NCBI RefSeq assembly: GCF_050320075.1
Contig: NZ_CP190018.1
Source: Escherichia coli
Lineage (GTDB): Bacteria > Pseudomonadota > Gammaproteobacteria > Enterobacterales > Enterobacteriaceae
DNA length: 64,000 bases
Strand: one strand, 5' to 3'
A model generated the notes under the pieces. The model was not told the DNA's origin and did not search any database. It saw nothing but the letters and a program-made list of their open reading frames with translations. The position numbers were made by a program, and so were the translations under genes. This document shows, one piece after another, positions 51,913-57,996 of this stretch (positions are counted from its first letter, which is position 1; every line of letters begins with the position of its first letter).

Positions 51913-52059
51913 AATATAAAAAAACAAACAGTAAGCCGGTTTTTCCTGCGACCTTTTCCTGGCTTGCCGGTCTGAGGATGAGTCTCCTGTGTCAGGACTG
52001 GCACATCTGCAATGCGTCGTGTTGTTGTCCGGTGTACGTCACAATTTTCTTAACCTGAA

Positions 52060-52812
52060 GTGACGAGGAGCCGGAAAATGTCTGACAACACCATCCCTGA
52101 ATATCTGCAACCCGCACTGGCACAACTGGAAAAGGCCAGAGCCGCCCACCTTGAGAACGCCCGCCTGATGGATGAGACCGTCACGGCCATTGAACGGGCA
52201 GAGCAGGAAAAAAATGCGCTGGCGCAGGCCGACGGAAACGACGCTGACGACTGGCGCACGGCCTTTCGTGCAGCCGGTGGTGTCCTGAGCGATGAGCTGA
52301 AACAGCGCCACATTGAGCGCGTGGCACGCCGGGAGCTGGTACAGGAATATGACAATCTGGCCGTGGTGCTGAATTTTGAACGTGAACGCCTGAAAGGGGC
52401 GTGTGACAGCACGGCCACCGCCTACCGGAAGGCACATCATCACCTTCTGAGTCTGTATGCAGAGAATGAGCTGGAACACGCCCTGAATGAAACCTGTGAG
52501 GCGCTTGTCCGGGCAATGCATCTGAGTATCCTGGTACAGGAAAATCCGCTCGCCAACACCACCGGCCATCAGGGCTACGTCGCACCCGATAAAGCTGTCA
52601 TGCAGCAGGTGAAATCATCGCTGGAACAGAAAATTAAACAGATGCAAATCAGCCTCAGCGGTGAGCCGGTTCTCCGGCTGGCAGGACTGTCAGCGGCAAC
52701 ACTCCCGCACATGGATTATGAGGTGGCAGGCACACCGGCACAGCGCAAGGTGTGGCAGGACAAAATAGACCAGCAGGGAGCAGAGCTTAAGGCCAGAGGG
52801 CTGCTGTCATGA
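52060..52812 (+). CDS. sid: Sid-like capsid size-determination (external scaffold) protein
   Basis: 250-aa coiled-coil-rich ORF at the head of the late-right operon, followed by ogr/delta and psu as in P4. Confidence 0.65.
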   Translation: MTRSRKMSDNTIPEYLQPALAQLEKARAAHLENARLMDETVTAIERAEQEKNALAQADGNDADDWRTAFRAAGGVLSDELKQRHIERVARRELVQEYDNLAVVLNFERERLKGACDSTATAYRKAHHHLLSLYAENELEHALNETCEALVRAMHLSILVQENPLANTTGHQGYVAPDKAVMQQVKSSLEQKIKQMQISLSGEPVLRLAGLSAATLPHMDYEVAGTPAQRKVWQDKIDQQGAELKARGLLS

Positions 52813-53054
52813 TGCGCTGCCCTTTCTGTCGTCATTCAGCGCATACCCGCACCAGCCGGTATGTGAGTGACAATGTCAAAGAAAGTTATCTGCAGTGCCA
52901 GAATATTTACTGTTCGGCGACATTTAAAACGCATGAGTCAATTTGTGCCGTGATTCGTTCTCCGGTCACGGAGGAAAAACCAGCACCGGCAAGCACAGCA
53001 CCGGCTGTTGTCCGAAAAGTTAAAGGCTGTTACAGCTCACCATTCAACCATTAA
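52809..53054 (+). CDS. Ogr/Delta-family zinc-finger late transcription activator
   Basis: 81-aa ORF with CPFCRH...C..C Cys4 motif (MMRCPFCRHSAHTRTSRYV...YLQCQNIYCSATF). Confidence 0.85.
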   Translation: MMRCPFCRHSAHTRTSRYVSDNVKESYLQCQNIYCSATFKTHESICAVIRSPVTEEKPAPASTAPAVVRKVKGCYSSPFNH

Positions 53055-53068
53055 TCAGGAGACGGGGT

Positions 53069-53641
53069 GTGACCACAATGTCATTACAGCAGGCTTTTGA
53101 GGTCTGCCAGAATAACAAAGCGGCATGGCTGCAACGCAAAAATGAGCTGGCTGCAGCCGAACAGGAATATCTGCGGCTTCTGTCCGGGGAAGGCAGAAAC
53201 GTCAGCCGCCTGGACGAATTACGCAATATTATCGAAGTCAGAAAATGGCAGGTGAATCAGGCCGCCGGTCGTTATATTCGTTCGCATGAAGCCGTTCAGC
53301 ACATCAGCATCCGCGAGCGGCTGAATGATTTTATGCAGCAGCACGGCACAGCACTGGCGGCCGCACTGGCACCGGAGCTGATGGGCTACAGTGAGCTGAC
53401 GGCCATTGCCCGAAACTGTGCCATACAGCGTGCCACAGATGCCCTGCGTGAAGCCCTTCTGTCCTGGCTTGCGAAGGGGGAAAAAATTAATTATTCCGCG
53501 CAGGATAGCGACATTTTAACGACCATCGGATTCAGGCCTGACGCGGCTTCGGTGGATGACAACCGTGAAAAATTCACCCCTGCGCAGAACATGATTTTTT
53601 CGCGTAAAAGTGCGCAACTGGCATCACGTCAGTCTGTGTAA
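53069..53641 (+). CDS. psu: Psu-like polarity-suppression / capsid-decoration protein
   Basis: 190-aa ORF (same length as P4 Psu) directly after ogr/delta and directly before cos. Confidence 0.75.
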   Translation: MTTMSLQQAFEVCQNNKAAWLQRKNELAAAEQEYLRLLSGEGRNVSRLDELRNIIEVRKWQVNQAAGRYIRSHEAVQHISIRERLNDFMQQHGTALAAALAPELMGYSELTAIARNCAIQRATDALREALLSWLAKGEKINYSAQDSDILTTIGFRPDAASVDDNREKFTPAQNMIFSRKSAQLASRQSV

Positions 53642-53676
53642 AATTCCCCGAAAATCCGCCCGTTTTTACTGAAAAA

Positions 53677-53703
53677 AGCCATGCATCGATAAGGTGCATG
53701 GCT
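53677..53703 (+). terminator. Hairpin downstream of psu
   Basis: agccatgcatcgataaggtgcatggct inverted repeat followed by ttt. Confidence 0.4.
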
Positions 53704-53805
53704 TTGCATGCGTTTTCCTGCCTCATTTTCTGCAGACCGCGCCATTCCCGGCGCGGTCTGAGCGTGTCAGTGCAACTGCATTAAAACCGCCCCGCAAAGC
53801 GGGCG

Positions 53806-53824
53806 GGCGAGGCGGGGAAAGCAC
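53806..53824. other. cos site (P2/P4-type 19-nt cohesive end)
   Basis: ggcgaggcggggaaagcac matches the P2/P4 cohesive-end sequence as I recall it; located after psu as in P4. Confidence 0.75.
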
Positions 53825-53842
53825 TGCGCGCTAGGAACGAAA

Positions 53843-56563
53843 TTATTTGTAATTATTTATTATCTCTTCAATCTTCAAAAGTGCTTGTGAGAAATCACTT
53901 AATTTCCGTGTGTTGACTATATAGCGTAATAAACCTCTGATTGTCTCTGCTTCTGAGTTAAATCTAAATCCTTTATAGTTTTCAACAAGCTTGGATACTT
54001 TCTCAGGAAGATTGTCATAGCTGTCTGAAATCTCTGATGCTAATAAAAATAATTCAAATTTAATCTTTCTTTCTTCATTGAAATCAGTTGTGGAAATATT
54101 TTTGATAAATGATTTTATTTTATCTCTATTCTTTTCTGTTGATATTCTGTACAGATCATATAGTATTGTTTCAGCAGCTCTTGCTTTATCTGTATTCGGA
54201 TAAGAACTAATTTCATGAAGTAATTTATCGACCTTGCTGTCGTCTTCTATATTAACGCCCAGTTTTTTGGCTACTGAAAAAATATTAGCAAGGCCTCTAT
54301 TGACTATAGCTATCACCTCATACCTACCAAGGTTTCTACTTATTAACTTATCGAGAATCGTGTATATTAAAGTTTTTATGCTGTCAGTGGATAAAGTTTC
54401 ACTGTGGGTGTTGTACCTTATAACGACATATTCGGAAATAGCATCATAGAATGCTAGGTTGTGGTATGAGGACTTTAAAGTGTCGTTTAATGTTTTTAAT
54501 ACTACCGCGTCTTGCTCTGTGGTTATTTTCATTAAAGATAGTAGTTTTAATGCGTTGATTAACTTTCCTTCTATAGGGTTGAGAAACGTAGCGAACTTGC
54601 TATATGACTTCGCTAGGTTTTGCAGTACAGTATTTATTAACCAATCTAATTCTTTGGGTTGAACAGACAGCGATAATAGTTTTTTATCTTCTTTCCTTAG
54701 TATAAGAGATAGGGTTTTATTATCAATGTATTTAATGCATGAATATAATTCTAATCTTGTTAGAGAAATCTCGTCTTTATCAGAATCCTTGATTATTTTT
54801 ATTTCAATGAATTTGCGAATCACATCCTTGAATTCTTTATAAACATCAATTAAACATCCATTTTTTACAACAAAAATTATAAGGTTTTCGAAAAGAAATT
54901 CCGTTTTATGAAGATCCCCGTCAACTAATAACTTTGTATTTCTTTTTCTTATATCGCTATACTTTGTTAATAATGAGCTAACGGTGTAGTGAAGATTTAA
55001 TAAATAATTAAAGGTTACTAAATCATAGATTACGGAGACGGTTTTTTTTATATTTCTCGGTAAGTTATCATATAATTCATGAATTTTATTCTCCTCAAGA
55101 GTTGAGTATCTTTCTCTATTAATTGAAAAATCATACTTCAATCTATTCAAAATAATATTTTGATTGAAAAGCGATATGAGAATATTTGCATAGTCCTTTT
55201 GTCTGATCTCTTCTGATAATTCCTCCTCTATAATACTGTAAGCCTCATCGTATTTATTTAACTGGAAGCAATTATATTTCTTAGTCTTGTCTATACTATT
55301 TGCAACCTTATGGGGGCGTGTATAGGTAACTATTTCGTTATAGTTGAAATTAATTTCCTTATCTATTTTAATTAATGAATCATTTGGTAGCACTTCAGTA
55401 ATCAGTAGCACTTCATCATGTTTATCGTTTAAAACAATACCATATATACTTGCTTTTTTTAATATAAAAAATAATTTTTGGAGATGCGGCTTATAGTCTT
55501 TAACTTTTTTATCATTACTGAGTATACTCAAAAACTTCTTATAAAATCCTCTTAGCTCTATATTATTATCATTAGAGGTTACTTCGGTGTCATAAAATTG
55601 CAATAAAGCTTTTGGTCCATTGTCATCAATATACATTAAACCGCAATTAGTGAAACATCTGGTAACTTGTTCAGCAAGTATTGCATTTAACGATTGAAGA
55701 GATCTCACTCTTGAATAAATAGCATTAATTATTTCGATATCATCTAAGTCTGCACATAGTTCTAGGCTATTTAGGCTATGCAGGAAAGTATATAACTTGT
55801 TTGAATATGAATTGTTATTGAAAGGTTTGATTGTTTCATCGGTTAAAATAATAGTGGTTATACCATGACTTTCAAGATATTTTCTTTGAGCAGGAATATC
55901 TTCGAATACTACTAAATACATAGGGGGTCTAACAGATGAATGATTCTGAGTCCATTTAATTATTTGCTTTAGATCTATATCATTATATGAATACCCCAAA
56001 AATAGCACAGTATGGGTGGAAATAACACTTTTAACATAATTTTCAATTAAGGGAAAATTGAAGCTATAATTTAAGTAATCATCTTCTTTAAAGACGATGT
56101 TGTGATTTTTAAAATCACCATGCATTTTTATCAATTTTTTGCCAAGGTAAGATTTCATCAAATCTTTGTCACTGCTTATTATATTATAAAAGTAAGATTT
56201 GGCATTTATAGCTGCTTCAAGCAAAGTGTCCCAATTCGTTGTGATAACAGAGTGAGGATTCAGTTTAAATATTAGATCGTGAATCTTTGAATGGGGAACA
56301 TTTTCAGGAAAGAAATCTTTGATTCTTTTGTAGTAAAGATGCTCACCAAATGTGAGGTAATAAAGCTGTGCTATTTTTAAATAATCTGATTCATCTTTGA
56401 TATTGAGATCTGAAATGAGAGTGTCAATTAAGTCCCCCCATGAAGGCATTTTGATAGTTTTTGTTTCAGAGGATTTTGAAACACCAGCCCCTACAAAAAT
56501 AGCTAAAGACTCCTCATCTTTTGCTCTTAAAATACTAGCTATATGTTTGTTTAGCAAATCCAT
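53843..56563 (-). CDS. SIR2-domain protein (906 aa; N-terminal sirtuin-like NADase domain, about 600-aa C-terminal region of unknown function); candidate single-gene antiphage defence protein (DSR-like)
   Basis: N-terminal motifs FVGAGVS, ITTNWD, KMHGD and LFLGYSYND fit the SIR2 family; no Walker A/B motifs seen in the remainder. Gene is markedly more AT-rich than the P4 backbone and occupies the cos-to-int slot where P4 has gop/beta/cII. Confidence 0.8.
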   Translation of the reverse strand: MDLLNKHIASILRAKDEESLAIFVGAGVSKSSETKTIKMPSWGDLIDTLISDLNIKDESDYLKIAQLYYLTFGEHLYYKRIKDFFPENVPHSKIHDLIFKLNPHSVITTNWDTLLEAAINAKSYFYNIISSDKDLMKSYLGKKLIKMHGDFKNHNIVFKEDDYLNYSFNFPLIENYVKSVISTHTVLFLGYSYNDIDLKQIIKWTQNHSSVRPPMYLVVFEDIPAQRKYLESHGITTIILTDETIKPFNNNSYSNKLYTFLHSLNSLELCADLDDIEIINAIYSRVRSLQSLNAILAEQVTRCFTNCGLMYIDDNGPKALLQFYDTEVTSNDNNIELRGFYKKFLSILSNDKKVKDYKPHLQKLFFILKKASIYGIVLNDKHDEVLLITEVLPNDSLIKIDKEINFNYNEIVTYTRPHKVANSIDKTKKYNCFQLNKYDEAYSIIEEELSEEIRQKDYANILISLFNQNIILNRLKYDFSINRERYSTLEENKIHELYDNLPRNIKKTVSVIYDLVTFNYLLNLHYTVSSLLTKYSDIRKRNTKLLVDGDLHKTEFLFENLIIFVVKNGCLIDVYKEFKDVIRKFIEIKIIKDSDKDEISLTRLELYSCIKYIDNKTLSLILRKEDKKLLSLSVQPKELDWLINTVLQNLAKSYSKFATFLNPIEGKLINALKLLSLMKITTEQDAVVLKTLNDTLKSSYHNLAFYDAISEYVVIRYNTHSETLSTDSIKTLIYTILDKLISRNLGRYEVIAIVNRGLANIFSVAKKLGVNIEDDSKVDKLLHEISSYPNTDKARAAETILYDLYRISTEKNRDKIKSFIKNISTTDFNEERKIKFELFLLASEISDSYDNLPEKVSKLVENYKGFRFNSEAETIRGLLRYIVNTRKLSDFSQALLKIEEIINNYK

Positions 56564-56575
56564 TGTATATACCTC

Positions 56576-57739
56576 TCAATATAATTTATCTGAATACCAT
56601 TGCATCATTTTTTTTCTATGTTCAAGATATTGAGCATGATTGTAAGTCCCTCGGATTCTGTTTTTATCAACATGTGCCAATTGTATTTCAATCCATGCGC
56701 TATCAAACCCTTGTTCGTGCAATATTGTCGACATGGTATGCCGAAAACCGTGACCTGTAGCACGGCCTTTGTAGCCAATTAACTCAATCACTTGTGAAAC
56801 ACTTTCTTTTGAGATTGGCTTGCTGCGGTTGTTCCTGCCAATAAAGATGTAAGGGTAATGGCCGGTAATAGGTTTGAGCTGTTTGAAAAGGTCAACTACC
56901 TGAGTAGATAAAGGAACAATGTGAGGTCTACGCATTTTCATACGTTCCGCTGGTATCTCCCATATACCTTTTTCGAGGTCTACTTCTTCCCACGTAGCAA
57001 AGCGCATCTCCTGCGTTCTTACACCAGTCAGCATGACTATCTTCGTAGCATTTTTGGTGATGATGCTACCGGTATACGCTTCAAGATCTCGAATAAAATG
57101 AGGCAACTCTTCAGCGGATAAAAATGGATGGTGTTTTTGCTTGGGAACGGCCAGAGCGATAGCTAAATCAGGTGCAGGATTGTACTCAGCACGGCCAGTT
57201 ATGATTGCATAGCGATAAACCTCACCGCATCTTTGACGCACCTTGCGTGTTTTCTCTAGTGCTCCACGTTTTTCGATTCGTCGTAATACTTCAAGCAGTT
57301 CTAATGGTTTGATTTCACTGATAGGACGTTTACCAATGAACGGGAAGACATCTTGCTCGAATGTCTTAATGATTTCTTCTCGATAGGCCACAGTCCAGCG
57401 GTCAGCTTTGTTGGTATGCCATTCTCGACATATTGCTTCGAAAGAATTTTCTGTTGATAGCTTTTGGGCGAGTCTTAAAGCTTTGCGTTCCTCTACCGGG
57501 TCAATGCCATTAGCAACCTGCTTACGGGCGATATCACGCTTCTCACGTGCTTCTGCGAGGCTTACTAAATCGTAGCTGCCAAATGACATTAACCGCGCTT
57601 TCCCTGCAAACCGGAAACGGAAACGCCAGCCTTTCGAGCCATCGGGATTGATAAGCAATGACAGACCTTGTCCATCGTTCAATGTGTATGGCTTGTCTTG
57701 TGGTTTTGCACGTTTGATCTGTATATCGGTGAGAGCCAT
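56576..57739 (-). CDS. int: Tyrosine integrase (P4-type)
   Basis: 387-aa ORF; C-terminal catalytic residues (HGFRHT ... RGTYNHAQY); adjacent to the tRNA gene. Confidence 0.9.
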   Translation of the reverse strand: MALTDIQIKRAKPQDKPYTLNDGQGLSLLINPDGSKGWRFRFRFAGKARLMSFGSYDLVSLAEAREKRDIARKQVANGIDPVEERKALRLAQKLSTENSFEAICREWHTNKADRWTVAYREEIIKTFEQDVFPFIGKRPISEIKPLELLEVLRRIEKRGALEKTRKVRQRCGEVYRYAIITGRAEYNPAPDLAIALAVPKQKHHPFLSAEELPHFIRDLEAYTGSIITKNATKIVMLTGVRTQEMRFATWEEVDLEKGIWEIPAERMKMRRPHIVPLSTQVVDLFKQLKPITGHYPYIFIGRNNRSKPISKESVSQVIELIGYKGRATGHGFRHTMSTILHEQGFDSAWIEIQLAHVDKNRIRGTYNHAQYLEHRKKMMQWYSDKLY

Positions 57740-57901
57740 GTGTATAACTGAAAACTACTTATAAAAAATCTATACACATTACTATACATATTTTTCGCGG
57801 ATTTAGGGAGACGATCTCGGACTGTTACGGATAAGATGATTATTCATCATATTGAATATAAAGGGTTTTATGGATCATCTCGGAACTGGCTGGATGAAGT
57901 T

Positions 57902-57996
57902 TGGCGGAAGATCACAGGAGTCGAACCTGCCCGGGACCGCTGGCGGCCCCAACTGGATTTGAAGTCCAGCCGCCTCACCGGAGACGACGATCTTCC
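57902..57996 (-). tRNA. selC: tRNA-Sec (selenocysteine tRNA)
   Basis: 95-nt minus-strand sequence GGAAGATCGTCGTCTCCGGTGAGGCGGCTGGACTTCAAATCCAGTTGGGGCCGCCAGCGGTCCCGGGCAGGTTCGACTCCTGTGATCTTCCGCCA, with the long extra arm and CCA end of E. coli selC. Confidence 0.95.

Follow-up and report, generated by a model that had tools for sequence, protein, structure and literature searches.

A diverged DSR2-family sirtuin, probably an abortive-infection NADase, is the single cargo of a P4-like satellite in Escherichia coli

We analysed a 64,000-nucleotide stretch of Escherichia coli DNA (contig NZ_CP190018.1 of assembly GCF_050320075.1; hereafter the window) in which a P4-like satellite carries, as its single cargo, a gene for a 906-aa SIR2 protein. 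The whole of this protein, and not just its SIR2 part, is homologous to DSR2 of Bacillus subtilis, as judged from a sequence profile and a predicted structure. The best explanation, and one that we consider probable, is that the gene encodes a DSR2-type defence-associated sirtuin, a phage-triggered NADase that aborts infection. A first-pass annotation made from the sequence had proposed a defence-associated sirtuin and left open whether it belongs to a DSR family; our results support that proposal and place the protein in the DSR2 type.

Results

Full-length likeness to DSR2

The gene and the domains assigned to its product are as follows.

53843..56563, minus strand: DSR2-type defence-associated sirtuin gene, 906 aa plus stop, ATG start
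55748..56563, minus strand: SIR2 NADase domain, aa 1-272, with pocket residues S29, N110, D112 and H148
55289..55747, minus strand: Linker domain, mixed alpha/beta, aa 273-425, placed by model and profile alignment; corresponds to DSR2 299-408
54920..55288, minus strand: helical-bundle domain, aa 426-548; corresponds to DSR2 409-547 and holds the family-invariant N467
53846..54919, minus strand: HEAT-like alpha-solenoid C-terminal domain, aa 549-906, the presumed sensor, with about 20 solenoid helices in the model

With the SIR2 protein as query, a scan of 1.84 billion cluster representatives returned 4405 relatives at E<=1e-3 and 469 at E<=1e-30, mostly full-length proteins of 890-1020 aa. 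We aligned 85 full-length homologs and used this alignment both as a profile and as the basis of an AlphaFold2 model built with no templates. The profile matched DSR2 in one alignment (E=3e-89), in which profile positions 5-828 correspond to DSR2 residues 27-866. It also matched the 708-aa DSR2 fragment 8ygk_A, which lacks SIR2, with E=1.7e-12 over profile positions 269-828. The model (mean pLDDT 88.6, pTM 0.82) gave the same picture. When it was compared with the PDB using Foldseek, the top 46 matches were all DSR2 chains. Full-length DSR2 chains aligned over about 940 columns with a query-normalised TM of 0.71-0.75 and about 18% identity, and chains of 659-666 residues reached a target-normalised TM of 0.72-0.75.

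DSR2 is organised as SIR2 (1-298), Linker (299-408), helical bundle (409-547) and HEAT-like (548-1005) domains (PMC11850899). In the predicted model and in the profile, the satellite protein has the same architecture, a Linker, a helical bundle and a HEAT-like solenoid following SIR2. The first-pass annotation had suggested comparing a predicted structure of the C-terminal part with DSR2, and comparison of the whole model produced the end-to-end match described above. A C-terminal match to a housekeeping enzyme family would, by its terms, have spoken against the proposal; instead, the C-terminal 630 aa match DSR2 domains. Two 1012-aa members of the family, P0246 and P0252, were considered as closer DSR2 kin and rejected, being no nearer to B. 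subtilis DSR2 than the query.

The reference protein comes from Bacillus subtilis 29R (Garb et al. 2022; its structures include PDB 8k98, 8wy8 and 8ygk). At about 18% structural-alignment identity the satellite protein is a distant relative of it, and the hosts differ as well: DSR2 is found in Bacillus, whereas the protein described here resides in Enterobacterales and is carried by a P4-like satellite.

SIR2 domain and catalytic residues

The SIR2 motifs that the first-pass annotation placed in the N-terminal part are all present in the translation, between aa 23 and 195: FVGAGVS (23-29), ITTNWD (107-112), KMHGD (146-150) and LFLGYSYND (187-195). The profile search that it proposed gave a single Pfam domain, a significant match to SIR2_2 (E=1.6e-23, aa 105-238); NCBIfam returned no match for the 906-aa protein. 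A sequence comparison with all solved structures ranked B. subtilis DSR2 first (E=8.7e-38, query aa 12-295 aligned to DSR2 34-325), with KomC and ThsA lower on the list. BLASTP against DSR2 reports 36% identity over 222 aa in the SIR2 part (E=3e-40). The residues S29, N110, D112 and H148 align with S51, N133, D135 and H171 of the DSR2 NAD+ pocket (PMC11850899). N110 and H148 do not vary among the 85 full-length homologs, in which the conservation of S29 and D112 is 90% or higher.

The C-terminal 600 or so residues had been described as having no known NTPase, nuclease or TIR motif. This description holds, since SIR2_2 is the only Pfam domain and the P-loop (GxxxxGK[ST]) is absent from the protein, as is the CxxC zinc motif. 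These absences bear on two other readings of the gene. The first is an effector like ThsA or Avs5, switched on through a small-molecule signal or through filament assembly driven by an NTPase rather than by a docking phage protein. PADLOC v2 does match the protein to ThsA models (E=4e-27), along with weak matches to PDC-S25 and PDC-S65, all of them in the SIR2 part. The ThsA match of PADLOC covers only aa 7-210, and matches of the ThsA and Avs5 kind span only aa ~7-280. Unlike ThsA of Thoeris, the protein has no SLOG domain in Pfam and no TIR or ThsB gene adjacent or nearby; unlike the SIR2-STAND protein Avs5, it has neither a P-loop nor a Pfam NTPase or STAND domain. Its C-terminal 630 aa match the middle and C-terminal domains of DSR2 instead. 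We therefore regard activation in the manner of ThsA or Avs5 as highly improbable. KomC, which also ranked among the solved structures, acts in the KomBC complex; the satellite protein has no such partner proteins, and its regulatory part is DSR2-like.

The second reading, which we find scarcely credible in either form, takes the product for a sirtuin protein deacylase with a housekeeping role, or the gene for a passenger that has lost its function and is decaying. RefSeq gives the identical protein (WP_000365012.1) no more specific name than 'SIR2 family protein', and among the homologs one bears the label 'NAD-dependent protein deacylase'. However, SIR2_2 is not the classical sirtuin family, and the CxxC zinc module is missing. 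A housekeeping role also fits poorly with a foreign base composition, with a location that is always a mobile-element defence hotspot, and with the gene's rarity: DNA at least 99% identical to this allele is present in 31 of 5426 complete E. coli genomes, chromosomal in all. Decay is excluded by the selection analysis given below.

Defence models and points against the DSR2 assignment

Several observations weigh against a DSR2-type antiphage protein. Outside SIR2, pairwise similarity to DSR2 is not significant by phmmer or BLASTP, so the homology of the sensor rests on the profile and the predicted structure. For the last ~80 residues there is no alignment to DSR2 867-1005, and the C-terminal domain is ~100 aa shorter than in DSR2. 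The PADLOC models for Dsr1 (PDLC04167, PDLC02183) and Dsr2 (PDLC02184) miss the protein, the Dsr2 model even at E up to 10. A P4-borne SIR2 system, #39 (pFR88), was not among the seven protective systems when challenged with an 8-phage panel (PMC9122126); the SIR2 protein of that system is, however, different from the one in the window. Finally, our literature search found no report that links P4 cargo to DSR2 or that tests this cargo or its close homologs.

The missing PADLOC call was examined with a control. The PADLOC Dsr2 model, which has 1222 positions, also misses B. subtilis DSR2 residues 27-866, and this part of DSR2 gives the same pattern in PADLOC as the window protein, namely ThsA, PDC-S25 and PDC-S65. 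Because the model fails on B. subtilis DSR2 itself, the lack of a DSR2 call is uninformative, and we dropped it as evidence against DSR membership. The DSR1 and DSR2 proteins modelled by PADLOC are likewise large single-gene products with an N-terminal SIR2 domain, but the models miss close relatives of the satellite protein as well. For the window protein there is no Dsr1 match beyond SIR2, and distant relatives match Dsr1 within SIR2 only. From these comparisons of sequence, the PADLOC Dsr2 model seems to describe a different C-terminal architecture, such that the name 'DSR2' would cover at least two architectures, and B. subtilis-type proteins probably tend to be missed in annotation. The same Dsr2 model matches the SIR2 domain alone of one Bacillus toyonensis relative.

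The satellite and its cargo slot

The gene lies in a P4-like satellite of 11.28 kb (46641-57922) at tRNA-Sec, bounded by a 23-bp att repeat of which two exact copies were found, against 0 expected by chance. The landmarks of the element are listed here.

46641..46663, plus strand: second att core copy, 23-bp repeat
53078..53641, plus strand: psu, polarity suppression protein (PHROG 6366, E=3.6e-99, and RefSeq annotation), convergent with the SIR2 gene
53787..53806, minus strand: GC-rich hairpin followed by TTTT, terminator-like by consensus scan only, 37 nt 3' of the gene's stop codon and just past cos
53806..53824, plus strand: P2/P4 cos core GGCGAGGCGGGGAAAGCAC, exact sequence match
56572..56575, minus strand: ribosome-binding site GAGG, read from the sequence, 8 nt 5' of the ATG and inside the 12-nt int-gene gap
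56576..57739, minus strand: int, P4-type tyrosine integrase, 387 aa (PHROG integrase matches and RefSeq), directly upstream of the SIR2 gene
57900..57922, plus strand: att core copy, overlapping the 3' end of tRNA-Sec (57902-57996, minus strand)

PHROGs and RefSeq together recognise a P4 backbone of alpha primase, a sid-like gene, delta, psu and int. The gene order psu, cos, SIR2 gene, int, tRNA-Sec puts the SIR2 gene in the cargo position of the P4 hotspot, whose conserved right-hand boundary is psu. The open reading frame list and the RefSeq annotation show no second credible gene between psu/cos and int of the window, in agreement with the first-pass annotation, which had the SIR2 gene as the sole one between cos and int. 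In seven related satellites, too, a single gene lies between int and cos, which points to the stand-alone organisation seen for DSR2.

Two further points of that annotation were confirmed. The gene is more AT-rich than its neighbours, with a GC content of 0.30 compared with 0.53 for psu and 0.44 for int; in 500-bp windows GC is 0.27-0.32 within the gene and 0.54-0.64 across the satellite backbone. The gene also follows int closely on the same strand, the TGA stop of int ending at 56576 and the ATG lying at 56563, which leaves a gap of 12 nt. A consensus scan found no terminator-like site between int and the SIR2 gene. In a simple promoter scan the number of sites was not above chance, and no site was upstream of the SIR2 gene or int. 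Expression would most likely come from the int transcript, through the gene's own ribosome-binding site; such a transcript fits the presence of a hairpin after the gene and the lack of one between int and the gene.

At the other end of the element, the ~476 bp from the alpha stop to the att copy (46664-47139) are empty in the window. In related P4-like satellite loci the alpha primase gene is closely followed by a second gene of defence type. In the Serratia locus L005 this is a 507-aa SIR2 protein (16743-18266; PADLOC candidate PDC-S25, E=1e-175), and in the Salmonella locus L004 it is a retron-type RT-TIR of type XII (14004-15611, E=1e-190), which L002 and L003 have too.

The cargo gene and int form one module

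Alleles of the gene that are 39-92% identical to the one in the window are always found directly behind int in P4-like satellites, and in seven satellites the gene starts between -34 and +12 nt relative to the int stop. The 92%-identical allele (locus L010) has the slot order int, gene, cos and convergent psu. The 82%-identical allele, from Salmonella enterica (L002, L011), is very common there, also at selC and in the same slot. A 49%-identical allele of Serratia marcescens (L005) and alleles of 44%, 43% and 39% identity (L012, L014 and L013, respectively) again occupy this slot. GC content in the alleles of related satellites is 0.29-0.31.

The identity of int tracks that of the gene (int/gene, in percent: 97/92, 97/82, 89/49, 61/44, 62/43 and 63/39), unlike that of the other backbone genes. 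Locus L013 illustrates this well: its psu (96%), sid (96%) and alpha (100%) are nearly those of the window, yet int is 63% and the DSR2-type gene 39% identical. Sliding nucleotide identity between satellites is continuous over the int-gene junction and drops at cos. Since int identity follows gene identity and there is no break in identity at the junction, int and the DSR2-type gene behave as one co-inherited module, for which recombination with the remaining satellite takes place at or near cos.

Within int, homology between satellites extends as far as the motif MQWYSDK, which precedes the stop by a few codons (window 56576-56640), and this sets the left border of the cassette inside int. 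The C-terminal residues of Int vary with the cargo allele, being KLY* in the window, YSLGVINNGLI* in Salmonella and FYKDRLNEQY* in Serratia, and in the Salmonella and Serratia loci the int frame overlaps the start of the cargo gene. A Salmonella satellite remnant (L004 8001-13391, GCA_020122955.1) has int and the DSR2-type gene joined to the DUF5375 and alpha primase genes. It lacks cos, psu, delta, sid and regulators; it is no longer packageable, yet it keeps the defence gene.

This close tie to int could also be read as a DSR2-type NADase that serves the biology of the satellite, either by sensing the helper P2-type phage, perhaps through its tail tube protein, so as to time or bias the exchange between satellite and helper, or as an addiction module that, together with int, keeps the satellite stable. 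Inheritance of the gene with int while the remaining backbone is mosaic would suit this reading, as would the retention of both by the immobile Salmonella remnant, and TIR-NLR, one of the hotspot systems, has been shown to restrict P2 as well and to reduce P4 transduction (Rousset et al. 2022, PMC9122126). On the other hand, the phages countered by other cargoes of this slot are non-helpers, P2-like phages generally being spared (Rousset et al. 2022, PMC9122126). If the helper set off NAD+ depletion, the satellite would ruin its own transmission, and the locus has no antitoxin-like partner gene. We consider a satellite-serving role unlikely and favour abortive defence against phages.

Selection and diverged alleles

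We compared the window allele with the 92%- and 82%-identical alleles. The overall dN/dS was 0.06-0.12, with 0.03-0.05 for SIR2, 0.08-0.24 for the linker and 0.10-0.16 for the C-terminal domain. By this measure of sequence change every domain is under purifying selection and the gene is functional; dN/dS values of 0.06-0.12 across the full length rule out decay. Amino-acid changes accumulate 3-4x faster in the sensor region than in the enzyme domain, and no part of the protein evolves faster than the C-terminal domain. The allele that is 82% identical overall is 91% identical in SIR2 and 75% in the C-terminal domain. For the allele at 49% overall, these values are 69% and 38%.

The gene of E. 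coli SMS-3-5 is 100% identical to that of the window, and the complete genomes closest to the window region are YZLc1-3 and Ec-U3 (99.9% over 20 kb). Full-length members at greater distance come from Rouxiella, Amphritea, Zobellella, Halomonas/Vreelandella, Sulfurimonas and Bacillus toyonensis, and 'SIR2 family protein' is the only name that any of them bears. Other distant members of the family were placed in 40-kb prophage-like contigs.

Other features of the window

A frameshifted internal fragment of rhuM (46437-46564) lies just outside the satellite att copy and adjoins setC. In Salmonella, rhuM belongs to the selC-linked island SPI-3. The fragment may be what remains of a previous insertion at selC.

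Further away, at ~27400-33000, a ladder of BLAST self-matches with an offset of ~290 bp marks a long tandem-repeat array. By alignment with SMS-3-5, the array lies within what corresponds to the 8.8-kb gene encoding EaeX/Air, an inverse autotransporter adhesin; the neighbours of this gene are eilA and type III secretion translocon-like genes. Three stretches (2391-2982, 11826-12593 and 38678-39563) have no megablast counterpart in E. coli SMS-3-5, while their flanks align at 94-98%; by this alignment they are small strain-specific insertions or replacements.

Discussion

The mechanism of B. subtilis DSR2 involves an autoinhibited tetramer, docking of a tail tube protein and loss of NAD+ (bioRxiv 10.1101/2021.12.14.472415, PMC11850899, PMC11087589); what docks is the tail tube protein of a siphovirus in its monomeric form. 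By analogy, the satellite protein would be held as an autoinhibited tetramer with its SIR2 domains in the centre. A phage protein made during infection would dock into the C-shaped solenoid, and docking would open the SIR2 core allosterically for NAD+ hydrolysis. Depletion of NAD+ would then leave the infected cell unable to support phage growth, an abortive infection. Against competing phages, this would be expected to benefit the host and the satellite, and possibly also the P2-like helper.

B. subtilis DSR2 is triggered by the SPR tail tube protein and also has a known inhibitor, DSAD1. The trigger of the satellite allele cannot be transferred from it by homology, because the sensor has no significant pairwise similarity, is shorter and ends in an unaligned tail. 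These differences in sequence suggest that the trigger is probably something other than the tail tube protein that triggers B. subtilis DSR2. A bolder idea, which we hold tentatively, is that the P4-borne clade has had its HEAT-like sensor retuned to a non-tail-tube trigger and travels, and is regulated, with int in a coupled operon as one module. If this is true, the sensor could, for instance, respond to a structural protein from competing coliphages and ignore the tube of the P2-type helper, and the alleles at 39-92% identity behind different integrases would be a natural library of trigger specificities.

The cargo itself has been catalogued before. Rousset et al. 2022 (PMC9122126) list a P4 hotspot system #9, 'SIR2_2', at 115 of 5,251 loci, with the comment 'Likely a NADase', and their Table S1 of P4 loci includes WP_000365012. 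This is the same family in the same slot, and its representative is nearly identical to the window protein over the printed stretch. In that study, 7 of 19 systems cloned from the hotspot were validated. The Domainator paper (PMC11754643) has the same family as cluster 12, 'Sir2-like (Likely a NADase)', and the supplements of Hochhauser et al. 2023 have no DSR rows. The accounts of system #9 give the Pfam label only, with no DSR2 assignment and no analysis of the C-terminus. To this our analysis adds an assignment to DSR2 over the full length, the control with PADLOC, the module formed by int and the gene, and an allele series with a fast-evolving sensor. What was known as a SIR2 candidate is a diverged, satellite-borne member of the DSR2 family.

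This provides a mechanistic assignment for one of the ten commonest cargoes of the E. coli P4 hotspot and implies no new mechanism. For a DSR2-type protein in E. coli, the trigger could be mapped with well-developed coliphage collections, and the allele set with its fast-evolving sensor is useful for asking how trigger specificity changes. A DSR2-type sensor in a satellite that needs the tail of its helper also raises a testable question, whether and how such a protein discriminates between helper and competitor.

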